In this document: in pieces, positions 2,625 to 60,288 of the stretch
How positions within the stretch are numbered: the stretch's first letter is position 1
Layout: each line of letters begins with the position of its first letter
Source: an uncultured Candidatus Saccharibacteria bacterium
Lineage (GTDB): Bacteria > Patescibacteriota > Doudnabacteria > UBA920
Length of the DNA: 64,000 nucleotides
Direction of reading: 5' to 3'
Assembly: GCA_964532425.1 (NCBI GenBank)
Contig: CAZHIA010000005.1
Location: forward strand, 66,772 to 130,771
Position numbers and translations under genes: made by a program
The notes under the pieces: model-generated
Told to the model about the DNA's origin: nothing
Databases searched by the model: none
The model's input: the letters and a program-made list of their open reading frames with translations, nothing else

Positions 2625-4691
<2,067 letters not shown>

Positions 4692-12457: not shown

Positions 12458-12465
12458 GCTTCCGA

Positions 12466-12852: not shown

Positions 12853-12885
12853 GTCAAATGTTAAAGGTTAATGGTCAAATGTTAT
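12853..12885. repeat. Heptamer repeat block in the opposite orientation (gtcaaat, gttaaag, gttaatg, gtcaaat), right flank of the 4HB gene.
   Basis: It abuts the 4HB ATG (aacatttgacATG on the coding strand). There is no SD. Confidence 0.6.
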
Positions 12886-13400: not shown

Positions 13401-13428
13401 GAATTTATAAAATAATGATTATGTTTAA

Positions 13429-13929
13429 TTATTGACACAGGAATGGCTTAATGTAAGTCGAAATATCGTCACCACTTCCTACTTCGTCAATGCCATTCGG
13501 ACCGGCACTAAAAACCTGGTCGTTTCTGCAATCCGAAACTCCTGATTCGCGCTCATTCTCATCAATAAGGTACGGGGTTCCCCAGGGATCTTTGGGTGAT
13601 TGGGAGAATCCCAGCCTTTGCCAGGATGTTGCCAAGGCAGCCAAGCCAGCGGCATTGGCATTGACGAGCCCTGTGCCCCGGAAGACACAGTCAGAGCAAC
13701 CGCTTCCAGTAATTTGCAGCACGGTATTGTTATTGGTGGTTCTGGATAACTCGATCTGGGTAGCTATTTGGTGGAAATCAGCGTCAACTCTCGCGTACTT
13801 CGCCTTCTGCCGGGTATTATTCATAGCTACCAGCACAATGCTGGACAGTAACCCAATGACAGAAATAACGACCAACAACTCTATTAAGGTGAATCCGCGG
13901 CTATTTAGTTGAAACCGTACAATATCCAT
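13429..13929 (-). CDS. type IV pilin / pseudopilin (prepilin-type N-terminal cleavage/methylation domain)
   Basis: N-terminus MDIVRFQLNSRGFTLIELLVVISVIGLL is a class III signal peptide with G^FTLIE. Cys pair near the C-terminus. Confidence 0.8.
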   Translation of the reverse strand: MDIVRFQLNSRGFTLIELLVVISVIGLLSSIVLVAMNNTRQKAKYARVDADFHQIATQIELSRTTNNNTVLQITGSGCSDCVFRGTGLVNANAAGLAALATSWQRLGFSQSPKDPWGTPYLIDENERESGVSDCRNDQVFSAGPNGIDEVGSGDDISTYIKPFLCQ

Positions 13930-13946
13930 CTTCCATGCTTAGTAAG

Positions 13947-15141: not shown

Positions 15142-15239
15142 TACGTGAGGCAATAACGATAATTATAACGATAACTTAAAGACTTATAATCGTAATTGTT
15201 ATATTTATAGTTATGGTTATAAGTCAAGGAGAATAAAGC

Positions 15240-18336: not shown

Positions 18337-18451
18337 ATGCGTATATTTAGCTACCTCAATACTAGACGAAATAGGCAGGTGAGTCAAACAAAGGAATAAT
18401 ATTTATCTCGATAATTCCCATTAAAGAGATCCCCACCCCGCCTCACTATTG

Positions 18452-18478
18452 AAAAAAGCACCACCTAAAGGTGCTGCA
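18452..18478 (-). terminator. rho-independent terminator downstream of the tRNA cluster
   Basis: Minus-strand hairpin agcacc-tttagg-ggtgct followed by tttttt. Confidence 0.55.
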
Positions 18479-18486
18479 TTTTTCAA

Positions 18487-18563
18487 TGGCGGGGACGGCG
18501 GGGCTCGAACCCGTAACCTCTCGCGTGACAGGCGAGTGCTCTAACCAATTGAGCTACGCCCCC
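18487..18563 (-). tRNA. tRNA-Asp (GTC)
   Basis: GGGGGCGTAGCTCAATTGGTTAGAGCACTCGCCTGTCACGCGAGAGGTTACGGGTTCGAGCCCCGCCGTCCCCGCCA. Anticodon loop CTGTCAC, discriminator G73, encoded CCA. Confidence 0.9.
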
Positions 18564-18717
18564 GTATATTACGCTACTTTGGCCCTGAACCATTCCCCGC
18601 CTTCGGCAGATCAGGTACAAGGCATGAACCAGTCGCACAGCGTGCCGCCCACAAGAAACACTCACGAGCTTATGGCTGTGCCATGAACCGGAGCGAATCC
18701 GATGAGCGACTGGTTCA

Positions 18718-23853: not shown

Positions 23854-24306
23854 TTATTCGGAGAGTACGCCTTCGCCCGTAATTGGCGTTCTGCGGTGAG
23901 CATGTTTGCGAGCTACATTGAGACGCATCAGGCTGTGTTCCAGACTGGCAGCAACCTTGGCGTACTCTTCAGCAGTTAAGGTTTCCTCTGCCATTGCCTT
24001 GCGTGCCCGCTCACGAGCAGCTTCGGCAGCATTGAGGTCTATCTCGAAATGATGTTCAGCCGCGTCTGCGAGAACAACAACTTCGCCGCCTTCGCGAATC
24101 TCGACAAAACCGCCGGCCACATAAATATAATAATCATCTTGCTCCGACTTGGCGTGAAGCTCTCCAGGGATGAGGTTCGCCACGAGCGGGATGTGACCGG
24201 GAAGAACGGTAATCTGACCCAGAGATGTCGGGCAGCTTAAACTGCTCAGCTCCTGGGAAAGTACCGTCCGCTCGGGAGTTACTAATTGGAAATGGAATGT
24301 TTTCAT
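23854..24306 (-). CDS. atpC: ATP synthase F1 epsilon subunit
   Basis: MKTFHFQLVTPERTVLSQELSSLSCPTSLGQITVLPGHIPLVANLIPGEL. Start chosen at the ATG at 24306. The track start at 24345 is a TTG lying inside a heptamer repeat block. Confidence 0.8.
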   Translation of the reverse strand: MKTFHFQLVTPERTVLSQELSSLSCPTSLGQITVLPGHIPLVANLIPGELHAKSEQDDYYIYVAGGFVEIREGGEVVVLADAAEHHFEIDLNAAEAARERARKAMAEETLTAEEYAKVAASLEHSLMRLNVARKHAHRRTPITGEGVLSE

Positions 24307-24312
24307 ATTCTG

Positions 24313-24400
24313 GACATTTAACATTTGACCATTGACCTTTGACAAATCATTGTCATTTTTGATTCTAAAATGGTCACATGTTACCTGTTAAAGGTCAAAT
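24313..24400. repeat. Heptamer (TTTGAC / TTTAAC / ATTGAC) repeat blocks in inverted arrangement in the atpD-atpC spacer.
   Basis: Left half in one orientation and right half in the other, giving a composite imperfect palindrome. Confidence 0.6.
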
Positions 24401-24401
24401 G

Positions 24402-25799
<1,398 letters not shown>

Positions 25800-25935
25800 T
25801 TATAAAATTATCCTATTAATCAAGTTAATTAATGTGATACTGATATACGGATGCATGCTGATGATACTGATGAATACGGATAAAGAAATCAGTATTATCC
25901 GTATCATCCGTACTCATTCGTAAATCAGTATCTTA

Positions 25936-26862: not shown

Positions 26863-26932
26863 AAATTAATTGGGCAAAATTAAGTAAAATTGACAAAATT
26901 GACTAAAATTTTGAACCAGCTAGTTTCGTCAA

Positions 26933-28435: not shown

Positions 28436-28551
28436 ATATTTCTTTCCGATCCGGATTTACAGATGATATCCGGATCAACGGATGACTACGGATCCAGATA
28501 TCCGCAGATATCTGTAGATCTGGATGTATCCGTATATCAGGATCGGGTTAA

Positions 28552-28944: not shown

Positions 28945-29031
28945 AATCGTATTTCCATTGTATTTCTATTTATTTCCATTGTATTTCGAAATATGGCTGA
29001 AATACATTGAAATAAAATTGAAATACTGTTG

Positions 29032-29592: not shown

Positions 29593-29747
29593 AAGTGTGT
29601 TTGAAATACAATGGAAATATATTGAAATAAATGGAAATACAATTGTATATCTACCGTATTTCTACTTTATTTCTATTGTATTTCTGTCGTTAATCTTAAG
29701 TTGTAAATCCCGATAATCGTCACAATGACCATTATCGGTTCTAAAAC

Positions 29748-29993
<246 letters not shown>

Positions 29994-30046: not shown

Positions 30047-30117
30047 GTCAACATTTGACACCTGACTTTTGACATTTGACCGAAAGGCCACATGTCAATG
30101 GTCAAAGGTTAAATGTT
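30047..30117. repeat. Heptamer TTTGAC-family composite palindrome in the atpB-atpE spacer.
   Basis: catttgac, ttttgac, atttgac on the left. gtcaatg, gtcaaag, ttaaatg on the right. Confidence 0.6.
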
Positions 30118-30126
30118 TGCAATTTG

Positions 30127-31032
30127 TCACACCGTGGGTGTTTCGTCAGTATCCGCGCGTAAGCCGGCAGTTTCCGCTTCCAGCCCGTGTTCGGTGGAAG
30201 CTTCGTGCCCGGCATCATGACCGTGCACTGGTTCGGTAGCCACACTCAAGTACACCAGGGTCAACATGGAAAAAACGGTGGCTTGAATGAAACCCACAAG
30301 CAACTCAAGAAGCATGAACGGGATGGGAATAAAGAAGGCTCCGTATCCGGCAATCAGGGAACCAAGCACGGTGAGCAGTACTTCCCCGGCAAATATATTC
30401 CCGAATAACCGCAAACTGAGGGAAACCATTTTGGCAATTTCAGAAAAAACTTCAATCAACCCGACAAAAAACTCAATAAAGGCTATCATCATATTCATCG
30501 GCTTCAGGCTGGCCACTGCATGCCAGAGATCGCCAACCTTAATGAACTTGTTGGCGTACTTAAAGAACCCGATAGTAACTATTCCTAAAATATGAGAGGC
30601 AATGACCGCAAATACCGCTATAGCTAGGGTCAGATTCAGGTCAGTGTTGGCAGGCCTCAGGAGCGGGATCAATTCGGCGTGTTCGCGAAGGCCGATAGAG
30701 CCCGTACCAGGCAGCAACCCCATCCAGTTGGAAATAAGAATGAAAAAGAAGATACTGCCCACAATAGGCAAGAACTTCAAGCTCTTTTTACGATCGCGGG
30801 TCACGCCGTCAATGTACCCGAGCACAAATTCCAAAAGTGATTCGGCAAAATTGACGATGCCGCGCGGAGCATTGTGTTCCGGCTTCTGTTTATTCAAGGC
30901 GGCTCGCAGAACCAAAGCAAAAACCGCGAAGATCACCAATCCTATCCAGGCATTGATCATGGAGTTGGTGACCGGAAGCGGTCCGAGCGTGAAAATATGT
31001 TCTGCAGCGAGTGGTGGTAAAGCGAGGAGCAT
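30127..31032 (-). CDS. atpB: ATP synthase Fo subunit a
   Basis: LSLRLFGNIFAGE (conserved Arg). Acidic/His-rich C-terminal extension. Confidence 0.9.
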   Translation of the reverse strand: MLLALPPLAAEHIFTLGPLPVTNSMINAWIGLVIFAVFALVLRAALNKQKPEHNAPRGIVNFAESLLEFVLGYIDGVTRDRKKSLKFLPIVGSIFFFILISNWMGLLPGTGSIGLREHAELIPLLRPANTDLNLTLAIAVFAVIASHILGIVTIGFFKYANKFIKVGDLWHAVASLKPMNMMIAFIEFFVGLIEVFSEIAKMVSLSLRLFGNIFAGEVLLTVLGSLIAGYGAFFIPIPFMLLELLVGFIQATVFSMLTLVYLSVATEPVHGHDAGHEASTEHGLEAETAGLRADTDETPTV

Positions 31033-42380: not shown

Positions 42381-44219
42381 TTATTTCTTTAAAACAGCCA
42401 AGAACGCTTCCTGCGGAATATCAACTTTACCGATTTTCTTCATTTTTTTCTTGCCGCGCTTCTGCTTGTTGAGAAGCTTCATCTTGCGGGTCACGTCGCC
42501 GCCGTAGAGGTAGCCGGTCACGTCCTTGCGCAGGGCAGAAATAGTCTCGCGCGCAATAACCTTGCCGCCGATAGCTGCCTGGATTGCGATCTCAAATTGG
42601 TGGCGCGGAATGAGCTGCTTGAGCTTTTCCACCAGTTCTTTACCATCAGTTTGGGCAACTGAGCGGTGCATGATGGCAGCGAGAGCCGGAACCGGCTCTC
42701 CTGCTACAAGGATGTCGACTTTGACCAAATCCCCTACCCGCTCTTCAATAAAATCATAATTCAGAGATGCATATCCGGAAGAAACCGACTTCAGTTTGTC
42801 GTAAAAATCCAGAATAATATTGGCCAGCGGCATCTCGAACATCATATCTACGCGCGTGTTGCCAATGTATTTGATATCTTTGGAAATAGCCCGGCGCTGG
42901 TTGGAAATTTCCATGATGGGACCGATATAATCCGTCGGCGTCAGGATATTGACTGACATCCACGGTTCATAGATCTCCTTGATGGTTGCGGGATCGGGAA
43001 ACTCCGCAGGGTTATGAATATAGAATTCCTCGCCGTTGGTTTTGACCACGCGGTAGGCTACGGAAGGTGCGGTCAGCACTAAATCCAGGTTATACTCGCG
43101 CATCAGGCGTTCCTGCACAATATCCATGTGCAAGAGGCCCAAAAACCCGGTCCGGAAACCGAAGCCAATGGACGGAATGTTGATCGGCTCGAATTCCAAA
43201 GCCGCATCGGATAGCTTGAGCTTTTCCATGGCATCGCGCAGCAGCGGGTAATCGTCTCCCGAGACTGGGAAAATGGTCGCATAGACCATGGGCTTAATTT
43301 GCTTGTACCCGGGCAGCTGGGTGACCTGCGATTTACCGGCGGAAAGCGTAACCGTATCTCCGACACGCGCCTTACTGACATCCCGCAAGCCGGTCACAAT
43401 GTACCCGACCTCACCCGTTTTAATCTCGTCCGACTTTTCCATTTTAGGATGGAAATAACCAACCTCAAGACTTTCCGCTTCGGTTTGAGAACCGATCATA
43501 AAGATCTTTTCGCGGTTTTTGAGGCTGCCATCCATGGCGCGGACAAACACAATAACTCCGCGATGAATGTCGTACATGGAATCGAAGATGAGGCCGCGGA
43601 ACGGTCTTTGCGGATCGCCTTTCGGCTGGGGTACGCGCTCGATAACTGCCTTTAAAATTTCCTCCACCCCTTCCCCGGTCTTGCCGGATGCATACAAAAT
43701 TTCGTCATCAGTAAACCCGAACGCGCTCTTTAACTCCTCAGCTGTCTTTTTGCGATCGGAGTTTGGCAGGTCAATCTTGTTTACGACCGGAATCAGTACA
43801 AGGTCATGTTCGAGCGCCAGGTAGACGTTAGCCAGGGTCTGGGCTTCTATGCCTTGGGTAGAGTCCACAACCAAAATCGCCCCCTCGCAGCACGCCAGCG
43901 AACGGGAAACTTCATAGGTAAAGTCCACATGACCCGGGGTATCAATTAAGTTCAAAGTGAAAAGTTCAAAGTTAGAAGTTTCTTCTCCGTCAATTTTTAA
44001 CTTTTCACTTTGAACTTTGAATGTATATTCCATCCTCACCGGCTGCAGTTTGATGGTAATGCCGCGTTCGCGTTCCAGATCCATTTGGTCCAGCAGCTGG
44101 TCTTTCATCTCCCGCTTGCTCACCGTATGTGTCACTTCCAAAAGCCGGTCAGCCAGTGTGGACTTGCCGTGATCGATATGCGCGATGATGCAGAAATTTC
44201 GTATGTGTGACTGGTCCAT
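42381..44219 (-). CDS. lepA: elongation factor 4 (LepA)
   Basis: NFCIIAHIDHGKSTLADRLL, DTPGHVDF and the LepA C-terminal domain. Contains an in-frame roughly 20-aa insertion encoded by a palindromic repeat. Confidence 0.95.
   Translation of the reverse strand: MDQSHIRNFCIIAHIDHGKSTLADRLLEVTHTVSKREMKDQLLDQMDLERERGITIKLQPVRMEYTFKVQSEKLKIDGEETSNFELFTLNLIDTPGHVDFTYEVSRSLACCEGAILVVDSTQGIEAQTLANVYLALEHDLVLIPVVNKIDLPNSDRKKTAEELKSAFGFTDDEILYASGKTGEGVEEILKAVIERVPQPKGDPQRPFRGLIFDSMYDIHRGVIVFVRAMDGSLKNREKIFMIGSQTEAESLEVGYFHPKMEKSDEIKTGEVGYIVTGLRDVSKARVGDTVTLSAGKSQVTQLPGYKQIKPMVYATIFPVSGDDYPLLRDAMEKLKLSDAALEFEPINIPSIGFGFRTGFLGLLHMDIVQERLMREYNLDLVLTAPSVAYRVVKTNGEEFYIHNPAEFPDPATIKEIYEPWMSVNILTPTDYIGPIMEISNQRRAISKDIKYIGNTRVDMMFEMPLANIILDFYDKLKSVSSGYASLNYDFIEERVGDLVKVDILVAGEPVPALAAIMHRSVAQTDGKELVEKLKQLIPRHQFEIAIQAAIGGKVIARETISALRKDVTGYLYGGDVTRKMKLLNKQKRGKKKMKKIGKVDIPQEAFLAVLKK
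43971..44041. repeat. 71-nt imperfect palindrome (ttcaaagtgaaaagttcaaagtt ... aacttttcactttgaactttgaa) inside lepA.
   Basis: Arms are reverse-complementary. In frame, it encodes FKVQSEKLKIDGEETSNFELFTL just before the G3 motif DTPGH. Confidence 0.55.
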
Positions 44220-44319
44220 AGATGCAGATATACAGATTAATGCAGATTTACAAATAACTACAGATAATCAGCCTCTATCTGTAGTTATCTGTAAATTTGT
44301 TATTATTTGTAGATTGGCA

Positions 44320-45918
44320 TTATTGGTTTTTATTATACAGAATCCGCTTGAAAAAATCCAGGGTCTTTTGGGCTTGTTCGAGCCTGGTTACCATCGTCAG
44401 GATTACAAAGACAGCTAAACCGGCACCAATCGACAATCCTGATTGAACGAAGATCCCGAACGTTGTCCGGGTGTTGACCAGCGGAGCGAACAGGCGGATA
44501 CAACCGTAGCTGACCAGCCCCATTCCCAGGCTTGCTATAGAAATTTTGTAGACGAAAATGGAGAGCTTGCGGTCGAACTCCTGGATGACATCGCGACTCC
44601 CAAGCTTACTGTGCAGGATAAGGAACAACAGAAGCGCATCCAGGGTCGTCGAAAGGGCAAAAGCCGACGCTATGCCGGTGAGCCCATAAGCCCTGCCCCA
44701 GAAGTACGCCAGTACTGCGTTAAGAATGATCGAGGACAGATTGGTGCAAACCGGTATGATCGTGTTATGGCGGGCATAAAAAGACTTGGCAAACAATGGA
44801 GACAAGCTCTGGCCAATCAACGAGAACGTAAAGATGCCCAGAGTGTTCAGTGTCGCCACGGTCTCAGGCCATCCGAATTTTCCATGGCCAAGCACCAGAC
44901 GAACGATATATGCACGGAATACCATCATCAGCACAGAGATCGGGACAATGAAGAACAGAATTTGCATCGCAGTACTGGCCAATGTATCGGCAAATTTTTC
45001 GAGCCGACCTTCCGCGTAATATTCCGACAACACCGGAAATGAAGCGGTGGCTACAGAAATGGCGAATATACCGAGCGGTACCGCTTGGAGATTGTTGGCA
45101 AAATTGAAGACACTCACCGACCCGGCAACCAGTATCGAGCCGACCGAAGTTCCAATGAGCAGGCTTATTTGAGAATTATCCATGCCCAAAATGCGCGGCA
45201 AAAAAAGCCGGCCAACTTGCCGCAACACCGGCTCCTTCCAGTCCACGCTTGCACTCCACCGATAGCCGAAACGTACTGCTTCCGGGATTTGCACCAGCAG
45301 ATGGCTAACAGCTCCAATTATTACCCCAAAACCGAGCCCCATGAGCCCTAACTTTGGATACAGGAAGAACAGCCCGAATATAATCCCGAGATTGTACATG
45401 ATCGGAGCCAGGCTCACGACCAGGAACTTTTTTTGGGAATTTAAAATGCTGGTAAAGACGTTGGAAATGGTAAAGATGATTGGCGACAGCAGGAACAACC
45501 TCGTTAGCCTGACCGTGTCCTCGAATTTCCCGTCCGTAAACCCCGGTACAAGCCCGTGGGCAATCTGCCGCGAGCCGGCGTACAGAATGGCACATATCAG
45601 AATAATGCTCAACGCCGAAATATTCAGCACTGAATTGGCGATCCGGTATGCCCGGTCTTTATCTTTCATCAACCACTCGGTGAATACCGGAATGAACGCC
45701 ACGGAGAGCGTGCCCAAAACAAGCAGGTTAAACGTAAAGTCAGGAATGCGGAATGCCGCGTAGTACGTGTCGAGCGTGTCTCCCGGGCCGATCTTGCCGG
45801 CCAGCAGCGAATCGCGCAGCAAAGCCACGAGTTTTGCCACAAGCGTAAACACCCCGACAATAATCGCGGCTTTAGTGATAGAAAAATTGGTTTCCAGGCT
45901 TTGAAGTTTTCGTATCAT
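44320..45918 (-). CDS. murJ: lipid II flippase MurJ
   Basis: 532 aa, 14-TM MviN/MurJ pattern. Confidence 0.85.
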   Translation of the reverse strand: MIRKLQSLETNFSITKAAIIVGVFTLVAKLVALLRDSLLAGKIGPGDTLDTYYAAFRIPDFTFNLLVLGTLSVAFIPVFTEWLMKDKDRAYRIANSVLNISALSIILICAILYAGSRQIAHGLVPGFTDGKFEDTVRLTRLFLLSPIIFTISNVFTSILNSQKKFLVVSLAPIMYNLGIIFGLFFLYPKLGLMGLGFGVIIGAVSHLLVQIPEAVRFGYRWSASVDWKEPVLRQVGRLFLPRILGMDNSQISLLIGTSVGSILVAGSVSVFNFANNLQAVPLGIFAISVATASFPVLSEYYAEGRLEKFADTLASTAMQILFFIVPISVLMMVFRAYIVRLVLGHGKFGWPETVATLNTLGIFTFSLIGQSLSPLFAKSFYARHNTIIPVCTNLSSIILNAVLAYFWGRAYGLTGIASAFALSTTLDALLLFLILHSKLGSRDVIQEFDRKLSIFVYKISIASLGMGLVSYGCIRLFAPLVNTRTTFGIFVQSGLSIGAGLAVFVILTMVTRLEQAQKTLDFFKRILYNKNQ

Positions 45919-48062
45919 TGGCGGGAGGTCAGGACAAAACCGTAAAAATGATTACCGGCGATTTCCCCTGTAACACTGATCGAATCCGAACTAACTTGCG
46001 CATCAGCTGCATTAGTCCATTCTAGCCGTTTTCCGGGGAAATGGAAAGCGTAAGAAAATGGATAATTGACCGCGCCGATCTGTTTTTCGACAAGCAAACT
46101 CGCATGGTCCACACTACCGAGCGTGTATGGCAACAGGTACGTTAACTGGATAGTCCGGCTTTGTCCGCCTTCAAGGGTCAGCCAGTTTCCGAAAAATGTT
46201 TTGCCGGATTCCTTACCAATCAAGGTGCCGGTAGTTACGTCGCGTACGGCATTCTTTTCCCAGGCTTGGACGTCTGGATCCGTCATGTAGTCGCCGGGCG
46301 GCTGCACCAGGTCCTTCCGGTCAAAACCGCTATTGTCCACCAACACAGAACCAGCAGGCACATAAATCCGAACAAAACTGGTGTTTTCCGTGTCTTTCAT
46401 TTGGGGTAGCCGGTTCGTGCGCGTAATCGTCACATGGTTCTGAATCTGCCCGTTCGGCAAGAGCGTGGAGTCCAGTGACACCTGCTGACTGATGAACAGG
46501 TCTGTTTTCGTCCCACCCAAATTACTTGAAACGATCGACAAAAAATCCCGATCAGTATCTTTCATGCTTCCAGACCAATTAAACGCTTCAAGTAAGCTTT
46601 CCGCTTGCGGGTCACGGGAATACACGACCGCCTGTTTTTCGTTTAGACTCAGTTGGAGGTTTTCAACGAACAGTGCGAATTGGTCAGGGGGCAAGGCCGT
46701 AATTTTTTGAATGAGTACGGGGAAGAAATCGGCAAGCAGTTGCTTGGGAGTGTTCAGGGGCTGAGTGCTGCTCATCGTAGTCAGCGCTTGCACCTGTTCG
46801 ACAAAATTGTCTGAATCCAGCGTTACATTGTAGCTGGGCATCTCGATGGGGCCGGTCACTTTGAGGGTATTAACTACCACGGTCGGTGTCATGGCAATAA
46901 CCACATCAGGCGTCTCCCCTCCTTCTTTTTCGTAAAATGAAGAAATCTTGCGGGCCGTTTTCGGAAAATCGGCAAACCAGTTGCTGTCGCGCAAGTACCA
47001 GCGGTCATTGACATTGAGCACCGGTTCCGGCGGGGCAATTTTTTCTTCAAGCTGGCCGTCCAGGTCATAAATGCTGCTGATGTGCATGCGTTCGATCTGT
47101 CCATTCTGCAAATTGACAGCACCGAACGTACCGATAAAACCCCCGCCCGCGCGAAGTTCATTATTATTCTCAAAAACGAACAGGATGTTTTTGTTCCCGC
47201 GGATCAACCCGGTCCCCAAAGTAAAAAGCTGGGAAAAATTATCGGCCGTTTTAGAAAGCACAGCTAACTTGCCTTTGAGATCTGAAAATTCTGTCCGCCG
47301 CTGTTCTGGCAGAACTGATTCCTGGATCGAGGAAACTTTCTCATTTGCCGCATCGATATTTTTTACTACAAGTGACAGGGTTACTGTCAAAGAGTCTAAT
47401 ATCTGCCCACTATCCCCCGAAAAAGCCAGGCCTTGCGGGGTGAATTTTACCTGTTCAGCGGTGTGGTAAAATTCAATAATCTCCGTACCGGCCAAAGCCA
47501 TATGTTGCCCTGCTTCAATAAGATTCTCCCCTCCCTTTTTTTGAGGAAGGACACTGAATAAAGCATTAGCCAGGCTGCCTGCTGAATCCAGTTCTTGTTT
47601 ACTTTCTTTAAAATTTTTCAAAGCCGCAGTGAACTCGTTTCTCGCTCCGGTTATATCTTTATCAGACATTGACTGCTTCGCTTCGAACAAGTGCTCACTG
47701 CCCCGGGTGGCGAACTGCATGACGCGATCTTTTAACTGCAATCCTGCGGCAGCAAGATATGCAGACTGCAGAGCCAAAACCGATAAAGCCACAAGCAGCA
47801 AGAAACAACCCAAAGCAAATTTAAAATTCGCGCTGGCAGCCAGACGGCGGCGAATGCGAAGATGCAGCTTAGTTTCTACCCATTGGGCATACGCCGATCT
47901 CAAAAGCATGCCTGCCGCAAGAATGATGGCGTTCCCAATGTAGTAATTGAGCATGAATAAAGCTTTGAAAGGAGCAAAAAACGCCCGAGCGATCCACGCG
48001 CGTCGTTTGTATCCTTTCGGCTTTGGAACCGGGAGATTGTATGAAGAATGAATATGGGGCAT
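45915..48062 (-). CDS. DUF4012 domain-containing envelope protein
   Basis: N-terminal TM. FENNNELRAGGGFIGTFG is the DUF4012 hallmark. Overlaps the murJ start by 4 nt. Confidence 0.75.
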   Translation of the reverse strand: MPHIHSSYNLPVPKPKGYKRRAWIARAFFAPFKALFMLNYYIGNAIILAAGMLLRSAYAQWVETKLHLRIRRRLAASANFKFALGCFLLLVALSVLALQSAYLAAAGLQLKDRVMQFATRGSEHLFEAKQSMSDKDITGARNEFTAALKNFKESKQELDSAGSLANALFSVLPQKKGGENLIEAGQHMALAGTEIIEFYHTAEQVKFTPQGLAFSGDSGQILDSLTVTLSLVVKNIDAANEKVSSIQESVLPEQRRTEFSDLKGKLAVLSKTADNFSQLFTLGTGLIRGNKNILFVFENNNELRAGGGFIGTFGAVNLQNGQIERMHISSIYDLDGQLEEKIAPPEPVLNVNDRWYLRDSNWFADFPKTARKISSFYEKEGGETPDVVIAMTPTVVVNTLKVTGPIEMPSYNVTLDSDNFVEQVQALTTMSSTQPLNTPKQLLADFFPVLIQKITALPPDQFALFVENLQLSLNEKQAVVYSRDPQAESLLEAFNWSGSMKDTDRDFLSIVSSNLGGTKTDLFISQQVSLDSTLLPNGQIQNHVTITRTNRLPQMKDTENTSFVRIYVPAGSVLVDNSGFDRKDLVQPPGDYMTDPDVQAWEKNAVRDVTTGTLIGKESGKTFFGNWLTLEGGQSRTIQLTYLLPYTLGSVDHASLLVEKQIGAVNYPFSYAFHFPGKRLEWTNAADAQVSSDSISVTGEIAGNHFYGFVLTSRQ

Positions 48063-48068: not shown

Positions 48069-48150
48069 ACATTTAACCTTTAACCATTAACATGTAACAA
48101 ATCCGCATTGTCCGAGTGTCTAGGTCAAATGTCAAATGTCACATGTCAAA
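48069..48150. repeat. Heptamer TTTAAC/TTTGAC-family composite palindrome between the DUF4012 gene and ftsW.
   Basis: catttaac, ctttaac, cattaac on the left. gtcaaat, gtcaaat, gtcacat, gtcaaat on the right. Confidence 0.6.
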
Positions 48151-48155
48151 TGTTT

Positions 48156-49295
48156 CTATAAGTTTGACTGCCGTGAAATATTCAGCAGAATACCTACGCC
48201 GGCCATGGATGCAATGAGGGCTGTGCTCCCGTAGCTGAAAAATGGCAGCGGAATACCGGTGAGCGGCAGCAGATTTACCATAGCGCCTATGTTGATGACA
48301 GCCTGGAATCCGATGTACGCGACAATACCAACTGCAATCATTTTGCCGAAACCATCCGGCGCGTTTTTGGCAATTTTGATTCCCCGCAGGACAAACGCGA
48401 CAAATAATAGGATCAGTATGGTCACTCGGAAGAAACCCAATTCCTCGGCCATAATGGCAAAAATAGAATCCGTGGTCGTTTCGGGGAGATAGTTATATTT
48501 TTGGCGAGAGAGGCCGTAGCCATACCCCCATAAACCGCCGGAACCGATAGCTAAAAGCGCCTGGTTTATCTGGTAGCTGATCCCTTTGGGATCGATAGCC
48601 GGGTTTAAAAATGTCGTAATCCGGCGCGCTCGGTAGGGCTCAAATTTAATAAATGCCGCGAGCGCCAGCACCCCGGTGACAATAGTCCAAAAAAAATACC
48701 GCAAATTAATGCCACCGACGAACAACATGACCATGGAAGTAACGATAAGCACGATCATGGTACCCAAGTCCGGCTGCCATAAAATGAAAGCCGCAAAGAG
48801 CCCAATAATCAACAGCGATGGCAGAACGCCGAAATAAAAGTCATTCATGGCATGTTTTTTCCGGTCCGCCCAGGCTGCCAGGTATAAGATAATGACAAGT
48901 TTTGCGAATTCGCCCGGCTGCACCGAAATAAAACCCAGGTCGAGCCAGCGGACAGCACCCCCGGCCGAATATCCCATGCCTGGCATTTTGACGAGCACCA
49001 GACTGACCAGGGAAACAATAATCAGTCCCGGAAGCAGCTTGAGCCAAATGTGATAATCCAAACGGCTGCAAATATACAAAGCCACAGCTCCAACGAGTCC
49101 ACCATAGACTGCCTGATGGATGATATAATACGTAATCGTGCCGTGATCCTTATATGACTGGACCGTAGATGCGGAGAAGAGCACCATAAACCCGTACACC
49201 AGCAGCGCCAGGGTAATAAGCAGCACCGGTAAATCAATTTTTCCGTTTTTTGCTTTTTTCATTTCAGGAAGATTATGTAACCTCGAATATACCAA
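48156..49295 (-). CDS. ftsW: SEDS-family peptidoglycan glycosyltransferase FtsW/RodA
   Basis: 10-TM SEDS topology. Alternative start MKKAKNGKIDLP at 49262. Confidence 0.85.
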   Translation of the reverse strand: MVYSRLHNLPEMKKAKNGKIDLPVLLITLALLVYGFMVLFSASTVQSYKDHGTITYYIIHQAVYGGLVGAVALYICSRLDYHIWLKLLPGLIIVSLVSLVLVKMPGMGYSAGGAVRWLDLGFISVQPGEFAKLVIILYLAAWADRKKHAMNDFYFGVLPSLLIIGLFAAFILWQPDLGTMIVLIVTSMVMLFVGGINLRYFFWTIVTGVLALAAFIKFEPYRARRITTFLNPAIDPKGISYQINQALLAIGSGGLWGYGYGLSRQKYNYLPETTTDSIFAIMAEELGFFRVTILILLFVAFVLRGIKIAKNAPDGFGKMIAVGIVAYIGFQAVINIGAMVNLLPLTGIPLPFFSYGSTALIASMAGVGILLNISRQSNL

Positions 49296-49317: not shown

Positions 49318-50727
49318 TCAGGAACGCGATAAATTCTTTACTAGTTCTTTAAAGCGTTCTCCCCTGTCTTTGTAATTTTTAAACATGCCGAAACTTGCGC
49401 ATGCGGGCGACAGCAGTACAACATCACCTGCTGTAGCAACAGAACGGGCTTGCCCGAGAATTTCTTCCATGGATGCAGCACCGGTCAGTACTTGCCCGTT
49501 AAATCCTCTTCCTTGTCCAAGCACTTCCCTGATCCGTTCAGCTTCCTGCCCTATGAGAATAACAGCTTTGATATTATGCGCCGAACGAATGACCTGTCCG
49601 AGCTCGGTAAAGTCGCTATGTTTGGTTGACCCCCCTAAAATAATAATCTCTGGTTCAGTAAAAGCTTTTATAGCGGCAATGGCTGTCTCAGGAACTGTAG
49701 AAAAAGAATCATTGTAGTATGCAACGCCTTCGTGGGCGCCAACCGGCTCAAGCCGATGTTCCAGCCCGGCAAAACTCTTAAGGACATCAGCCACCGCTTC
49801 CGGTTCGATGTCTAAGGCACCCGCTGCCGCGACCGCTGCGCAGACGTTCTCAAGATTATGACGCCCCTTCAGCTTAAGTTCATTGCATGGAAAGGAAAAA
49901 ATCCGTGGGAAGATTCCGACTGCGACCATTTGGTCCTGTTCGATAAAGCATCCCTCCCGCAGCTGTTCATGCGTGCTCACAGAAAGTTTCTTGTGAGCCT
50001 GCCCCATTTCACCAATGAGCCTGGTGGCGGGGTAGTCGATATTATAAATGGAAACATCTTCTCGCTTTTGATAGACCGTAAGCGAGCTTTTGGCAGCATG
50101 GTATTCGCGAATATGCCTATGTTGATCAAGATGCTCCTGGGTGACCATGAGACAAACCGCGATGTGAGGGCTTTTGTGCAGATCCTGAAGCTGGAAACTA
50201 GAAAGCTCGAATACCACTATATCGCGCTCCGTCATGTCATCCAAAAATTCGAACGGCTGGATCTTGCCGATGTTGCCGGTCAGGAACATTTGACCTTTGA
50301 CATTTGACCATTGACCATTCAACTTCAACATTTCATAAATAAGAGTGCTGGTGGTTCCCTTGCCTTTCGTGCCGGTCACTCCGACAATCTTACCCGGGCA
50401 GTGGTCAAAGAACCATTTGGTCTGGCTCGTGATTTTCAACCCCTTGTGTTCGGCCGCTAACAGATCAGGGTGCAGCCGCCATAGTCCCGGACTACGGAAG
50501 GCCGCGTGAAAGCCGGTAAGTTCTTTCAGACAGTCCGGACCGAAGATAAAATTGAGGTTGAGCGCTTTTATTTTTTCTTGTTCTTCCGGCGCCCATTGTT
50601 CCCACGGGCGCTGGTCAAAAAGCACGGGGGTAATGCCGTGCTTGAGCAAATATTCGGTAACAGCCTGCCCTTCGCGTCCAAAACCCAATACCGCGGTGAG
50701 TTTTTGATCCAAATCTTTGAGTTCCAT
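49318..50727 (-). CDS. murD: UDP-N-acetylmuramoyl-L-alanine--D-glutamate ligase
   Basis: Start at the ATG at 50727 (MELKDLDQKLTAVLGFGREGQAV). GVTGTKGKGTT is the Mur ligase P-loop. The track ORF extends further upstream through an overlap. Confidence 0.85.
   Translation of the reverse strand: MELKDLDQKLTAVLGFGREGQAVTEYLLKHGITPVLFDQRPWEQWAPEEQEKIKALNLNFIFGPDCLKELTGFHAAFRSPGLWRLHPDLLAAEHKGLKITSQTKWFFDHCPGKIVGVTGTKGKGTTSTLIYEMLKLNGQWSNVKGQMFLTGNIGKIQPFEFLDDMTERDIVVFELSSFQLQDLHKSPHIAVCLMVTQEHLDQHRHIREYHAAKSSLTVYQKREDVSIYNIDYPATRLIGEMGQAHKKLSVSTHEQLREGCFIEQDQMVAVGIFPRIFSFPCNELKLKGRHNLENVCAAVAAAGALDIEPEAVADVLKSFAGLEHRLEPVGAHEGVAYYNDSFSTVPETAIAAIKAFTEPEIIILGGSTKHSDFTELGQVIRSAHNIKAVILIGQEAERIREVLGQGRGFNGQVLTGAASMEEILGQARSVATAGDVVLLSPACASFGMFKNYKDRGERFKELVKNLSRS
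50286..50325. repeat. Heptamer TTTGAC block inside murD.
   Basis: On the coding strand tggtcaa atgtcaa aggtcaa is 21 nt. It adds WSNVKGQ between the conserved EMLK..G and GNIG. Confidence 0.6.
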
Positions 50728-50806
50728 TGTAATTAATTTTACCACTTTTTCAAGGATTCTCAAAATTAAAAGGGAGCCGCTTAAGCGACCCCTTGCCAGC
50801 CGGCTG

Positions 50807-51613
50807 CTAGGCCGGCGTAATTTCGTACCGCGGTCCATGGCTGCCAATGCACCGCTCGCCGCCAAGACCTTCAAAAAGCAAGGCCCAGCCTCCGCACTGC
50901 GGATCAAAGGCGAATGTCTCCCGGGCACCGGTCGGTTTTCCTGCTTCGTCTGTTCTTTCGATCGTAAGCTCGGACCGCAAATCGGATACAACCTGGACCG
51001 TATCGATGACAAGACCGCCTTCCTTGATCTGAACTTTTGCCCCTGGTTCAAACAACACCCGGCCTGACCGATCACGTTTAGCCACGTATCCTGCGGTTGC
51101 GGTGCCAGTTTCGTTGCTGGCACAATCGAACTCGCACTTGCCAAACGGAATAGTAGGCGGGATGTTCAATTTGCACACAGCAGTCGCGAGCGCACTTAAG
51201 GCAATAAAACCGATCTTCGGCTGTTTTGACGCTTGGTCAGCAAGAGCCATAGGCAACCGGAAGACTTCTTTCAGATCAGCGGTGTTCTCCAAGGCTGACC
51301 CAAGCCCACAACTTTCTTCCAGCCAGTCCCCCTCGGGGCCATCGATCACCACCGGATACACGTATGTGAGTACGTCTTCATGGTCTATATGACCTTTGTG
51401 AAAAACGTGCCAGGGCGTGAAGTATGAAAAGTCCGTCCCGCGGCAGATTTGGGACAGAATGACATCCCAATCCCACTGCTTCGGATCCGTGTCCAAGCCT
51501 TCCGGCCAAAAGACACTTTCTCCGTCTTGATGATTGTCCAGCACGACGACTCTCGAGAGTTCCGCCCCTTGTTCAGTTACTTTGCGTACGACTCCAACTG
51601 GTACGATGAACAT
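50807..51613 (-). CDS. hypothetical protein (268 aa, acidic)
   Basis: Strong SD gaggagga. No family recognised. Confidence 0.55.
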   Translation of the reverse strand: MFIVPVGVVRKVTEQGAELSRVVVLDNHQDGESVFWPEGLDTDPKQWDWDVILSQICRGTDFSYFTPWHVFHKGHIDHEDVLTYVYPVVIDGPEGDWLEESCGLGSALENTADLKEVFRLPMALADQASKQPKIGFIALSALATAVCKLNIPPTIPFGKCEFDCASNETGTATAGYVAKRDRSGRVLFEPGAKVQIKEGGLVIDTVQVVSDLRSELTIERTDEAGKPTGARETFAFDPQCGGWALLFEGLGGERCIGSHGPRYEITPA

Positions 51614-56763: not shown

Positions 56764-58845
56764 CTAGAATTTCTGCGACTGTCCTGGCTTCAACACGGTC
56801 CGCTGTATTGGCTTTTCCGAAGAGGGTTGCGGTGCGGGAACCGTGTCTTCCTGCCTGTCGTGAGGAGCTTCCGGGAGCGGCCGCAATACCGGCTGTTGAG
56901 ACTTGGCCGGTTCGCTCATAAGACTGTTGACCACTTGCGTCAGACGCTCGTGCTCTTGCTTCTTCTTTTCTTGATGCAGGTTTGCGACAGTACTCCAAAT
57001 AGGATTCGTATTCTTCTTCGGTTCGCTGCGGTGACGGTGTTCATTCAGCTGCCGTTCCCGGCGAGTACCCTGGCCATCACGGCCGTCTCGCGGGCCGCCA
57101 TGACGGTCATCGCGTCCAAATTTCCGCACATGTCCATGGTCATTTTTATGCAATGACTGGTGCGCTGGCTGCTGCCGTTCAGGCCTTGGTACCTGGAGTG
57201 CCACCGGTTGTTCCTGCCGGACCGCAGGTTTTGGGACGATCACCGGCTTTTCAGGAATAATCGGCTGCGGAGCCTGCTGGATTACCGGCTGCGGAAGCGG
57301 CACCTGTTCCACTTCCTGGGTCAAAACAAGCAGAGGTTCGGGCTTTTTTTCTTCTGGCCGGACCTCGTCTTGCCGGGCCTCCCTGAATGATGCTACGGTT
57401 GGATGCTTCTCTTGTACCGGTTCTTCCTGGTGCTGTTCTCGCTCTTCCGAGGCTTGAGCCTCTTCCGCCTGAATAGTCAGCATTCTACCGCTCGGCAATG
57501 ATTCTACCGGAGCGCCTGCCATCTCAGCTGCGGCTTCCTGGTGGAACTCCGATCCCATCCAGCGCGTGATCTTGTCTTCCACCTCCGCTACAGGATTAGC
57601 ATACCGTTCTCGCGAGACTTTGATGACTTTGTCCGTATTACCACTGAACCAATCGGGGCTGGGAGGAATCGTGGTTGCGGAAAACGGCTCACTCGCCACG
57701 CCATTGATCATGAGTTTCAATACCACATTGAATTTCGGCAGGTTCACCAAATCATTGGGAGTAAAGGTTGGTTCGAACTCCGTCTCAAGAAACTCGGCAT
57801 CCGCCGCCCCGATGCGGAATACCACCATGGTGCCGACGTTGCCGAAAATAGCATCGCGGACTTTGGTGTTCTTATCCTGCTCGAGCTGGGCGATATATTG
57901 GTGTCCCACAATGAGATTCAAACGGTATTTTCTCGCTTCAGACAAGATGGTGGCAAAGCTCTCGGTGGCAAAATTCTGGAACTCGTCTACATACAGATAG
58001 AAATCCTTGCGCTCATGTTCCGGAATATCGGTTCTCGACATGGCTGCCAGCTGCAGCTTGGTCACCACCATGGCTCCAAGCAGCGCCGAATTGTCCTCAC
58101 CGACCTTGCCTTTGGACAGGTCCATGATCAGAATTTTGCGATTATCCATAATGTCGCGCATGTCGATAGTGCTCTTCGGCTGGCCGACGATATTGCGAAT
58201 AATGGCGCTCGACAAAAACTGCCCGACCTTATTCTGAATCGGCGCCACAGCCTCGGTGCGGTACTTTTCTGCGTAATTGGCGAATTCGTCCACCCAAAAC
58301 GCGCGGACCATAGGATCTTTAATATTGTCCACGATCTTCTTGCGGTATTTCTTATCCGCGTACATGCGGGTGATTCCGAGCAGCGTATTCCCCGGGCTGT
58401 CGAGCAAGGCCAAAATGGTGTTGTTCAGAATGTATTCCATTCTTGCCGACCACAAATTCGCCCAAATTTTGGTGAATACGCCCATGAGACCCGAAGCAAC
58501 CAAATGTTTGTATTTCGTATCCACCGCTTCGAGAATATTAAATGCCAAGGGATGATCCATGTCAGCCGGATTGAAGTAGACCACATCATTGATGCGACTA
58601 TTCGGGACGCAGTCCAAAATGCGTTGGACAGAATCCCCGTGCGGGTCAAGAAACGCCACACCATGACCGTTCCGTATATCCTGAATAACCATGGTTTCCA
58701 TTGCGGTCGTCTTACCCATACCGGTTTTACCGATAAGATACATATGCCGCCGTCGGTCGTCTGTCTTTATACCAAAAGGCACTTCCTTATTCCGGAAGTT
58801 GGTGCGGGCAAAAATCGTGATTAGATTCTTATCGTCAGTGGCCAT
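56764..58845 (-). CDS. VirD4/TraD/TrwB-type coupling-protein-like ATPase with a roughly 270-aa disordered P/Q/E/R-rich C-terminal tail
   Basis: Walker A LIGKTGMGKTT followed by VAFLDPHGD (TrwB/TraD signature). Walker B FYLYVDEFQNF. Start at the ATG at 58845 (MATDDKN). The track start at 58923 lies inside a heptamer repeat block. Confidence 0.7.
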   Translation of the reverse strand: MATDDKNLITIFARTNFRNKEVPFGIKTDDRRRHMYLIGKTGMGKTTAMETMVIQDIRNGHGVAFLDPHGDSVQRILDCVPNSRINDVVYFNPADMDHPLAFNILEAVDTKYKHLVASGLMGVFTKIWANLWSARMEYILNNTILALLDSPGNTLLGITRMYADKKYRKKIVDNIKDPMVRAFWVDEFANYAEKYRTEAVAPIQNKVGQFLSSAIIRNIVGQPKSTIDMRDIMDNRKILIMDLSKGKVGEDNSALLGAMVVTKLQLAAMSRTDIPEHERKDFYLYVDEFQNFATESFATILSEARKYRLNLIVGHQYIAQLEQDKNTKVRDAIFGNVGTMVVFRIGAADAEFLETEFEPTFTPNDLVNLPKFNVVLKLMINGVASEPFSATTIPPSPDWFSGNTDKVIKVSRERYANPVAEVEDKITRWMGSEFHQEAAAEMAGAPVESLPSGRMLTIQAEEAQASEEREQHQEEPVQEKHPTVASFREARQDEVRPEEKKPEPLLVLTQEVEQVPLPQPVIQQAPQPIIPEKPVIVPKPAVRQEQPVALQVPRPERQQPAHQSLHKNDHGHVRKFGRDDRHGGPRDGRDGQGTRRERQLNEHRHRSEPKKNTNPIWSTVANLHQEKKKQEHERLTQVVNSLMSEPAKSQQPVLRPLPEAPHDRQEDTVPAPQPSSEKPIQRTVLKPGQSQKF

Positions 58846-58892: not shown

Positions 58893-58955
58893 AACATTTG
58901 ACATTTGACTTTCTGCGACCCAAGTCAAAGGTTAATGGTCAAACGTCAAATGTTG
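58893..58955. repeat. Heptamer TTTGAC-family composite palindrome between the TM protein and the ATPase gene.
   Basis: acatttgacatttgact ... gtcaaaggttaatggtcaaacgtcaaatgtt. Confidence 0.6.
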
Positions 58956-58959: not shown

Positions 58960-60288
58960 CTAAAAGTCTTCCGATACCGGCAAATTAATCGGCGCTGAGG
59001 CTTTCTTGCTCTCAGTCCGTTCGATAGGCACCGCAGCTGCGGTCGTCGAAATCGGGAAATGGTACAATGTAGCCAATTCCTCAACATTCATGACGAACAT
59101 GGGATTGCCAATATGCACATCACGGTTCTTATAGCCTTTAAACATCATAACCTTGCGGCGTTTTTCTTCCCATTCGATATACGGTTTTTCCAGCGTCGGG
59201 GAAATATGATATTCAAGGCTGGTCCAGGTCAGCTTAGTATCCGGCTTGAACGTGTTGGTATTGGCAGAGCCCAAAGGCCGGTACGAGCCGATGACCACGG
59301 ACTTCTTAGACCCGTCATATTTGTCCTTAGGCGCAATATATAAGTGGCGGATCTTAGTCCTGTATCCCGGTTTGCCAATTTTTCGCTGAATGAGATTGAC
59401 GCGCTCCTTCTCCATGTCAGTCATGCTTTGCCAGTTGTTCTTGGGGCCTTTTTCATCATGGCCATGACCATGACCGCCTCCTAAAAGGGCATCCTTAAAG
59501 CTAAAGTTCGCAAATGCGTTAAGCGGTGCAAGGAAAAAGTCACTCCAAGAAGCCTCATGCGCCACCGCTTCGCCAATCAACTCCTTCACCTTTGACTCCC
59601 CTTTCGGCTGCCATTCATTATCGCCAAGCGGTTGTATGATGATTTGCACCCCGTAAAATTCATGCGGACCGATCTTGGACAGTGCCTCAAAATGCGAGGC
59701 AAGAGGATCGATAACCTTTTCTTCCGCTACCGGATGCTCAAAATCTTTATATGTTTTGATAGGTATTACGTCGTCGGCCAATAGCTTATATTCGCAGCCC
59801 CAAATGTCAAAACTGCTGGTTTCTGGATCATAATTGATATTCTCCATGTAATCTTCAACCTGGGTAATTTCCGCCGTCGGATATTGCGCATAAAATGCTG
59901 CCTCGACCAGGTCCCTGGTCTTTTTTGGGCACATGATTAAAAACGAGATCTTGCCGCCCATGCTGATGATCTCCAGGCTGTACCAAAGTTGGTCCTTGCC
60001 TTCCACATATTTTTGAGCGAATGTTATCCCGGTATGGAGCGCGTGCATCTGGGCGAAAATCGATTCTACCGCGAGTGTACTGACCAAATTTTCTTTCGGA
60101 ACTTTGATGTTCAAGAAAATCCATTCCTGGCTATGAATGAACTGGTGCTGAATCTCTCCCATATACAGCCAGAACAGGATCCGAACAGTTACGAGAACGA
60201 CCAAAACCCAGCCTCCATACAAGAAAAAAGAGGCTGTCGTTCTCAGCAGATCCCCAACATTTGGGAAAATTCCCTGGAAAATATCCAT
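58960..60288 (-). CDS. hypothetical membrane protein (442 aa, N-terminal TM)
   Basis: TM FFLYGGWVLVVLVTVRILFWLYM. Its end is 114 nt upstream of the coupling-ATPase-like gene, co-oriented. Confidence 0.55.
   Translation of the reverse strand: MDIFQGIFPNVGDLLRTTASFFLYGGWVLVVLVTVRILFWLYMGEIQHQFIHSQEWIFLNIKVPKENLVSTLAVESIFAQMHALHTGITFAQKYVEGKDQLWYSLEIISMGGKISFLIMCPKKTRDLVEAAFYAQYPTAEITQVEDYMENINYDPETSSFDIWGCEYKLLADDVIPIKTYKDFEHPVAEEKVIDPLASHFEALSKIGPHEFYGVQIIIQPLGDNEWQPKGESKVKELIGEAVAHEASWSDFFLAPLNAFANFSFKDALLGGGHGHGHDEKGPKNNWQSMTDMEKERVNLIQRKIGKPGYRTKIRHLYIAPKDKYDGSKKSVVIGSYRPLGSANTNTFKPDTKLTWTSLEYHISPTLEKPYIEWEEKRRKVMMFKGYKNRDVHIGNPMFVMNVEELATLYHFPISTTAAAVPIERTESKKASAPINLPVSEDF

Follow-up and report, generated by a model that had tools for sequence, protein, structure and literature searches.

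TTTGAC heptad repeats in a Candidatus Doudnabacteria genome: probable terminal arms of a small 4HB gene cassette resembling the intervening sequences of 23S rRNA

The intervening sequences (IVSs) of 23S rRNA that bear an open reading frame (ORF), of the Coxiella and Leptospira type, are regarded as selfish elements that spread horizontally. The Coxiella IVS is 428–444 nt long, with a terminal inverted-repeat stem of 28 bp and an S23p ORF, which is preceded by 3–4 GACAGAT heptads in tandem, the first of them being the site of RNase III cleavage (PMC4990558). Here, we explored a family of TTTGAC repeats in a 64-kb stretch of DNA (the window, that is, the whole sequence analysed) of Candidatus Doudnabacteria, a lineage of the Patescibacteria or candidate phyla radiation (CPR). 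GyrB homologues assign the window to this lineage, an identical GyrB is on record on an NCBI contig of 135.5 kb and in run SRR11567520, and the window carries housekeeping genes. One pair of these repeat arrays encloses a gene for a four helix bundle (4HB) protein of the S23p family. We consider that the TTTGAC blocks are probably the inverted ends of a small, selfish 4HB gene cassette, which would be the same kind of element as the ORF-bearing 23S rRNA IVSs. The cassette is best placed as a variant of the IVS/S23p cassettes and of the heptamer repeats, located in CPR mRNA operons and not in rRNA.

MacGregor (2015) reported TAACTGA heptamer repeats in Beggiatoaceae, Cyanobacteria and Bacteroidetes, and drew no link between them and 4HB or S23p proteins (0 mentions; PMC4679880). 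Those repeats are similar to the arms described here in several respects. They occur in tandem sets of 2–6, are mostly intergenic, end a few nt from a start codon where a Shine–Dalgarno (SD) sequence is rare, hold stops in three frames in the forward orientation, may overlap the end of the upstream ORF, and lie inside ORFs only in the reverse orientation. Their patchy distribution across phyla suggests horizontal spread, which is a further likeness. However, the sets are direct there (one inverted among 170) and the pairs are inverted here, the unit here is ATTTRAC, and the CPR hosts are new. Tandem heptanucleotides in cyanobacterial spacers, the short tandemly repeated repetitive (STRR) heptamers, were reportedly described by Mazel et al. 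in 1990 and are said to form hairpins often between cistrons. To our knowledge, the STRR and TAACTGA repeats have no agreed origin or function, although STRR heptamers have been known since about 1990. The STRR heptamers, which are also mentioned in PMC2670836, share with the CPR arms the location of tandem heptads in spacers, and such arrays directly flank 4HB genes on cyanobacterial plasmids that we examined. However, their units are different, and they have been reported as a feature of cyanobacteria rather than as gene-cassette boundaries.

The repeat copies were counted within the window. The TTTGAC family consists of 12 arms in 8 blocks, which are given below together with the enclosed gene.

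2917–2950, minus strand: in-frame solo arm within gyrB, with 4 heptads; GTCAAAN on the mRNA strand
12426–12457, minus strand: downstream (3') arm of the 4HB cassette; sense GGTCAAAGGTCAAATGTCACATGTCAAATGTT; ATG in three frames
12466–12852, minus strand: 4HB gene (PF05635 23S_rRNA_IVP; TIGR02436), 128 aa; sole gene between the arms
12853–12885, minus strand: upstream (5') arm of the 4HB cassette; sense TAAC-ATTTGAC-CATTAAC-CTTTAAC-ATTTGAC; stops in three frames
24313–24400, no strand assigned: gene-less hairpin of 4+4 heptads with a 29-nt loop; fills the atpD–atpC spacer
30047–30117, no strand assigned: gene-less hairpin between the atpB stop (30127–30129) and atpE (29748–29966); folding z = −5.0
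48069–48153, no strand assigned: focal gene-less hairpin between the ftsW stop (48156–48158) and the ATG of a DUF4012 gene (48060–48062); z = −2.5
50286–50325, minus strand: solo arm of 4–5 heptads, in frame inside murD; encodes NGQWSNVKGQM
58893–58955, no strand assigned: gene-less hairpin of 2+4 heptads, past the stop of the ORF at 58960–60288; z = −5.7

This element family is real and non-random. With at most one mismatch, TTTGACNTTTGAC was matched 22 times where 0.53 matches were expected, a count reached by 0 of 100 shuffles. A family-aware scan with the in-phase unit N[ACT][TGC]T[GA]AC found exactly 12 runs, each within one of the 8 blocks. Runs with at least three in-phase units numbered 10, against 0.02 expected under a second-order Markov null (100 simulations; highest value, 1). 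The period is strictly 7 nt, and 11 of the 12 arms are exactly four heptads (28 nt) when aligned from their outer ends, the exception being the left arm of the 58893 block with 2 units. The heptad consensus is ATTTRAC, the outer end of a full arm is (A)ACATTTGAC, and all 12 arms begin at the outer end with (A)AC followed by ATTT[G/A]AC. The eight loci and their 7-nt spacing, which an earlier note on this DNA had put forward, were recovered, and its description was correct for the most part. Its statement that the blocks are always inverted holds for the paired arms (TTTGAC...loop...GTCAAA in 5/5) but not for gyrB and murD, which hold single arms. The focal block starts at 48069, as that note had it, but ends at 48153 and not at 48150.

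Of the four roles that the note named with no preference among them, one was a DNA-uptake signal, here taken as one for type IV pilus or competence machinery, like the DNA uptake sequences (DUS) or uptake signal sequences (USS), which often form inverted pairs. The organism does encode pilins, and one cassette in Peregrinibacteria lies in a pilus operon. However, the motif is not scattered singly but is found in discrete four-heptad arms: outside the blocks of the window, ACATTTGAC occurs 0 times (0.5 expected) and ATTTGAC 9 times (11.6 expected). There are merely 8 sites per 64 kb, compared with about 1 per kb for a DUS, and many similar hairpins of the same genome use unrelated units. An uptake role is extremely improbable in our opinion.

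The blocks at 12853–12885 and 12426–12457, which had been listed as separate elements, are the two arms of one composite around the 4HB gene. Its layout is arm, 4HB gene and inverted arm, with a total length of about 450–460 nt. The TAA stop of the NYN gene (12882–12884) is contained in the upstream arm, whose four heptads end directly at the 4HB ATG (12850–12852), and the ATG of the PIN gene (12435–12437; MSNVTKIVLDTNV) lies inside the downstream arm. The 4HB protein matches PF05635 (E = 1.3e-26), which is named ‘23S rRNA intervening sequence protein’ (S23p), and TIGR02436 (E = 5e-25), named ‘four helix bundle protein’; its closest solved relative is PDB 2GSC, deposited as 5 chains. That the arms bound a 4HB gene cassette which recurs in other CPR phyla is the main point, and it was overlooked in the earlier note.

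The composite resembles the Coxiella and Leptospira type of IVS in enclosing an S23p (PF05635) gene, in its similar size and in its terminal stem of about 28 bp. With the Coxiella IVS it shares three to four tandem heptads directly ahead of the ORF start, and by analogy its predicted panhandle would be a good RNase III substrate. Selfishness and horizontal spread, as the IVS is viewed, are also part of our reading of the CPR cassette. It differs from the IVS in that it lies between protein genes of an operon and not in a 23S rRNA helix (Rfam found only four tRNAs in the window, and the cassette is between NYN and PIN), and in that its heptad is ATTTRAC and not GACAGAT. Also unlike the IVS, both CPR arms are wholly heptads, and the genome with the cassette has scattered copies that lack the gene or consist of a solo arm.

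On balance, our reading is that the window contains one complete cassette, that the four hairpins between genes of operons are its gene-less derivatives and that two further arms stand alone. The four intergenic blocks have the same arm anatomy as the cassette with a loop of only 9–29 nt, and they and the solo arms probably descend from it, to judge from this anatomy. The 24313–24400 hairpin is 1 nt from the atpD stop (24402–24404) and about 7 nt from the atpC ATG (24304–24306), and the ATG of the DUF4012 gene lies 6 nt from an arm of the focal block. In that block one arm is wholly of the TTTAAC type and the other wholly of the GTCAAA type, which gives 4 G·U pairs in the sense RNA.

We then compared the 4HB gene across CPR. 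Its homologues are 60–77% identical, all the contexts that were read carry inverted ATTTRAC arms, and these arms end at or close to start codons. Cassettes with the same arms occur in six different gene neighbourhoods. One is the syntenic NYN–4HB–PIN arrangement, which is found with arms, as RmuC–NYN–4HB–PIN–UvrD/PDDEXK, in three further species groups (L202, L203–206 and L207–210). The other five are unrelated:

Bac_transf and glycosyltransferase (GT4), in Spechtbacteria
T2SSE and pilin, in Peregrinibacteria; the arm encodes the prepilin leader MSKVKCANG|F
one locus in Levybacteria
RRF and an ORF
YebC and RuvC, in Parcubacteria

Heptamer arrays can also arise without any element, as ordinary STRR-like microsatellites formed by slippage in AT-rich spacers, functionless and next to 4HB genes by chance. 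A scan of genome contigs with TTTGACNTTTGACNTTTGAC found such arrays (TTTGACN ×3) at at least 120 loci in many phyla, mostly as perfect (GTCAAAA)n; the right arm in Spechtbacteria is expanded to 7–8 units, so slippage occurs, and Coxiella strains differ by one heptad. However, the arms in question are nearly fixed at 4 degenerate units and invariably have the (A)ACATTTGAC outer end. In each of six unrelated contexts it is the 4HB gene that these arms surround, and in the unrelated-context loci (about 90 kb) ATTTRAC-family arrays are confined to the flanks of the 4HB gene. The heptad core does not vary where silent sites are saturated, as given below. Paired TTTGACN arrays of other genomes, among the matches listed, were all of the opposite arrangement (0 TTTGAC..GTCAAA against about 15 GTCAAA..TTTGAC), and a 4HB gene was present in 2 of the at least 120 loci (L019, L004), adjoining the array in neither. 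The microsatellite explanation is improbable on these grounds. The arrays at the other loci were also considered as copies of the same element, which was rejected because they mostly have perfect units and lie in coding sequences or in the opposite inverted arrangement.

We investigated the conservation of the heptad in nine cassettes, with 71 non-coding units. The 4HB gene shows 68% amino-acid identity among them, and its four-fold degenerate sites are 29% identical, that is, saturated. In contrast, the T, A and C at positions 4, 6 and 7 of the heptad were invariant in 71/71 units, position 5 was only G or A, and positions 1–3 were conserved at 82–85%. Because the core is invariant while silent sites are saturated, the motif itself is maintained and not merely the complementarity of the arms. 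Positions 4–6 read TRA (TGA/TAA), and positions 7-1-2 read CAT, which is ATG on the opposite strand. Since 7 is not a multiple of 3, the stop and ATG signals reach all three frames in three heptads; each entry arm holds stops in three frames and each exit arm holds ATG in three frames. We also noted that G is often replaced by A in the entry arm, which turns TGA into TAA. Two explanations, which do not exclude each other, may account for the constraint on the heptad. One would be the coding signals, namely frame-independent stops and starts. The other would be sequence-specific recognition, with the linked 4HB protein as the obvious candidate reader.

The likely mode of life of such a cassette can be outlined as follows. 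It would spread horizontally and settle in intercistronic junctions. The stops (TRA) of the entry arm would end translation of the upstream gene in whichever frame, and the ATGs of the exit arm would let translation of the downstream gene begin in whichever frame; junctions may tolerate the cassette because its arms carry these two sets of signals. The paired arms would form a stem of about 28 bp, bringing the stop next to the following start, and this stem is a plausible, putative RNase III substrate by analogy with the Coxiella IVS. In predicted folds of the cassette transcripts, the 5' flank pairs with the 3' flank as a panhandle in 11/11, with 12–38 long-range pairs. The arm duplex energy ranges from −25 to −58 kcal/mol, with 20–32 contiguous pairs in L211, L215 and L219, and the gene-less hairpins have folding z values of −2.0 to −5.7. 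The idea that the repeats are stem-loops was right in form.

The blocks had been associated with start codons lacking an SD. We found an SD-like motif in only about 3/36 confident window genes (about 33/36 starts are SD-less), and atpE, downstream of the 30047–30117 hairpin, has its own GAGGAG SD. The association is a property of the genome and not of the repeat, because SD sequences are rare throughout. The proposal that some predicted N-terminal extensions are translated repeat was correct, because the GTCAAAT orientation has ATG in three frames. Gene callers run ORFs into the arms and give false N-termini for PIN, atpC and the TrwB-like gene. For the last, the likeliest start is the ATG at 58843–58845, about 47 nt beyond the 58893–58955 hairpin; a TTG start of this ORF at 58923 falls within the repeat arm. 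A promoter with TTGACA as −35 box was dropped as a candidate, since the arrays end on start codons and leave no room for a −10 box and leader.

The copies inside gyrB and murD read GTCAAAN in the mRNA, which is the sole orientation free of stops in every frame. In gyrB the 11 residues that the arm encodes fall within a K/E-rich, hypervariable linker, which precedes the C-terminal domain and whose net length is unchanged. In MurD the arm lies in the loop after the P-loop helix, a loop that exceeds its counterpart in solved MurD structures by 6 aa. The same loop reads Q[IM]SNVKCQ-like in many Doudnabacteria and has a short form in others. The presence of this peptide in many Doudnabacteria indicates that the in-gene copy is old or recurrent. 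Ogata et al. (2000) reportedly found selfish Rickettsia palindromic elements in frame in surface loops of essential genes. The tolerance of palindromic DNA in frame within essential protein genes is common to both cases; the elements here differ in that only single arms are in coding sequences, and in being unrelated in sequence and built of heptads. Such arrays within gyrB or murD are open to being mistaken for assembly errors. Side by side with these copies, the same MurD loop reads ‘SLRG...PRND’ in other relatives (MurD set P0283, P0290, P0297), a hot spot of inserted repeats, and AtpG loops of relatives (L126, L133, L134, L138, L139) contain a translated palindromic element, ‘IPSASEGSL...DSS..LGMT’. 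The longest murD ORF (49318–51144) begins at a TTG that precedes the conserved MurD start (MELKDL, about 50727) by 139 codons; this N-terminal extension overlaps the ORF at 50807–51613 and looks spurious.

Dispersed palindromes could also be moved by a foreign enzyme. Repetitive extragenic palindromes (REP), bacterial interspersed mosaic elements (BIME) and REPINs (PMC3733652, PMC3116915) are, like our blocks, dispersed imperfect intercistronic palindromes with no target duplications and possible mRNA stem-loops. The blocks might be of this kind, with a REP-associated tyrosine transposase (RAYT) or IS200-type transposase elsewhere in the genome, or miniature inverted-repeat transposable elements (MITEs) of a conventional insertion sequence. 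The palindromic copies are dispersed over intergenic spacers, target-site duplications are absent as with Y1 transposases, and the slight antisense G·U excess reported below might reflect an intermediate of single-stranded DNA. Element ends that consist of several short repeats are known from hAT subterminal repeats and Drosophila Foldback, and the transposase-binding ends of IS607 have four 9-bp direct repeats (PMC6188088). Our arms similarly have several copies of a short motif per end, inverted between ends. However, they lack a known transposase, and their period is 7 and not the helically phased 9–11. They also have no GTAG/CGTC tag (cf. PMC3733652), they are internally repetitive, and the gene carried encodes a 4HB protein and not a transposase. 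As for MITEs, terminal inverted repeats are present, and neither duplications nor a transposase were found in the window. No RAYT (Y1), other transposase, recombinase or reverse transcriptase (RT) is among the about 58 window genes, and no transposase appears in the Pfam hits for genes called beside the cassettes of other phyla, many of which have no recorded hit. Published work on palindromic elements or MITEs of CPR bacteria, when searched for, yielded nothing relevant. The REP/RAYT proposal of the earlier note finds no support in the window, and this whole group of explanations is very improbable.

RTs are of further interest here. We know of no role for the ‘23S rRNA intervening sequence protein’ family outside diversity-generating retroelements (DGRs). 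Avd of these retroelements is given as a PF05635 member (PMC10053308). There is no RT in the window, the called genes directly flanking cassettes are not RTs, and the lone RVT match near cassettes (PF13456:RVT_3) is about 2.3 kb distant, where L211 ends. The 4HB protein had no matches among viral contigs and no defence-system match in PADLOC.

Arrays next to 4HB genes are also present beyond CPR. The 4HB gene of a Chitinophagales metagenome-assembled genome is flanked by CCTTAAA heptads. On cyanobacterial plasmids, 4HB genes are inside operons and 5/6 distinct ones are flanked by 7–8-nt arrays (units AGTCAGG, GGTGACA, AAAGCTA and GGAGATA); the background of heptad arrays on pNPUN02 is about 4 sites per 59 genes. 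As a separate observation, 4HB genes occur in CRISPR-Cas operons in L230 (Anabaena sp. 90 pANA02), L235 (Pseudanabaena pPg_01) and L232 (Picosynechococcus), between cas6 and cas4 in two of these plasmids and between cas10/cmr2 and cmr3 in one. It is possible, but doubtful, that 4HB (PF05635/TIGR02436) proteins and tandem heptad arrays are one widespread system with a cognate heptad per subfamily. The tentative assignment would then be ATTTRAC to CPR, GACAGAT to the Coxiella IVS, CCTTAAA to Chitinophagales and the four units to Cyanobacteria. If this is true, a pentameric 4HB protein would read about 4–5 heptads of RNA or DNA, and the heptamer/STRR repeats of Cyanobacteria, Beggiatoaceae and Bacteroidota would be cassette sites and their orphaned remains. 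The possible union of 4HB proteins with heptad arrays in a single cross-phylum system is a testable lead. The window links heptamer repeats to the 4HB/S23p family in a third setting, CPR protein-coding operons. It gives a clean test set, with a cross-phylum cassette, gene-less derivatives and a heptad spelling stop or start in every frame. Three ideas become testable with it: that IVS-like cassettes colonise mRNA in addition to rRNA, that they are cut out by RNase III, and that 4HB proteins bind the heptads.

The suggestion of a binding-site array for a regulator has a related form. The heptad arrays might be cis-regulatory sites at which a sequence-specific protein controls translation or mRNA fate of the gene at the array end. 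The candidate reader would be the pentameric 4HB protein with about one heptad per subunit, like TRAP; through its flanking arrays the 4HB gene would regulate itself, and its regulon would consist of the gene-less copies. This explanation would suit the conservation of the motif far beyond silent sites and beyond the needs of pairing, the near-constant 4 heptads per arm, the arrays that finish at, or at most 7 nt from, start codons, and a heptad that is common within a 4HB subfamily and different between subfamilies. The direct, non-pairing arrays around the Pseudanabaena gene and the 5 chains of the nearest solved relative also agree with it, and MacGregor proposed a post-transcriptional regulator for TAACTGA heptads just upstream of starts (PMC4679880). 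However, stop and start codons plus the need for complementarity would also account for the conservation. The putative targets (atpC, atpE, the DUF4012 gene and the TrwB-like gene) have no obvious common theme, and both orientations are found upstream of starts, so that a single-stranded RNA motif would differ between sites. The location of 4HB genes in mid-operon among unrelated genes and in rRNA suits a selfish element better. We regard regulation as possible but rather unlikely, and a binding-site array stays a candidate to that extent.

Several results weigh against the selfish cassette, which we nevertheless prefer. Movement itself is unobserved: target-site duplications are absent at the arm ends of the window elements, and, as noted above, no transposase, recombinase or RT lies in the cassette or the window. 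The synteny of NYN–4HB–PIN in several species shows that the cassette is old at this locus and could be a resident operon member. The descent of the gene-less hairpins rests solely on identical arm anatomy. The window cassette itself has an imperfect stem (22/31 pairs), and z for the focal hairpin is only −2.5. The antisense duplex is the more stable in 9/14 cassettes, with mixed results for the window hairpins, and G·U pairs are more numerous on the antisense strand in 12/14 cassettes (window, L202–L234), a statistic that is not a clean one, as the cassettes are partly related to each other. A sense-strand G·U signature of an RNA-level stem is thus absent, and is the reverse if anything; with no sense-strand advantage, selection on a sense RNA stem is undemonstrated. 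Lastly, two cyanobacterial 4HB genes (L231, L004) have no flanking arrays, and the arrays of the Pseudanabaena gene (L235) are direct and not inverted.

The neighbourhood of the window cassette is also conserved. The block of RmuC, NYN, 4HB, PIN and UvrD/PD-(D/E)XK helicase-nuclease (11976–14972 in the window; L202–L210) is kept in Doudnabacteria relatives, and in some of them the RmuC–NYN–4HB–PIN block has added PDDEXK_3 and NTP_transf_2/HepT (toxin-antitoxin-like) genes. The neighbourhood may serve in defence or in the repair of nucleic acids. We considered 4HB as recent cargo between NYN and PIN, which was rejected here since the block is syntenic in several species.

Nearly every atp-operon spacer in the window holds a hairpin with short tandem-repeat arms of differing units of 6–11 nt. 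These and similar hairpins elsewhere in the window are as follows.

25835–25922: atp-spacer hairpin
26876–26910: atp-spacer hairpin
28449–28543: atp-spacer hairpin
28949–29025: atp-spacer hairpin
29601–29685: atp-spacer hairpin
6691–6832: similar hairpin elsewhere
15153–15221: similar hairpin elsewhere
43948–44021: similar hairpin elsewhere
44222–44320: similar hairpin elsewhere

The hairpins of these other families are 70–100 nt long, and their arms are degenerate short tandem repeats with a unit particular to each: ATAACG (6 nt), AAGTTCA (7 nt), GATACTGAT/ATACGGAT (9 nt), the GAAATAC type (10–11 nt), and ATCCGGAT/CTACAGAT. The ungapped hairpin finder and the pairing of Tandem Repeats Finder arrays are too insensitive for a census of hairpins with repetitive arms. 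The 9-mer family is also present in two different atp spacers of the relative L123 (74% column identity). The spacer hairpins with other units are dispersed element families too.

More distant relatives have atp genes that overlap or adjoin one another, and spacers of 70–550 nt are found in the window and the closest relatives. The atp spacers are of secondary origin and were formerly tight junctions. In the closest relatives the spacers are filled with related hairpin families, either at matching junctions or at others, and some hold small ORFs. In L129, the atpA–atpG spacer has a divergent 4HB gene flanked by inverted heptads GAATTAT/ATAATTC. The small ORFs between atp genes of close relatives encode about 85–130 aa, at places where the genes overlap in more distant relatives:

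L126: 4798–5084
L126: 8057–8335
L130: 4460–4734
L130: 6733–7000
L134: 5183–5475
L129: 2041–2448

After one of the L126 inserts come CTTAAAT heptads, which adjoin the atpA start. The TTTGAC dimers that L126 and L153 have in atpG were set aside as chance matches within the conserved coding sequence LTLTFNQL.

Apart from these families, an imperfect palindrome with 35-nt arms (74% complementary) at 18432–18503 overlaps the end of tRNA-Asp (18487–18563). The tRNA spacers at 18564–18717 and 18795–18971 fold strongly, with z values of −5.2 and −3.1.

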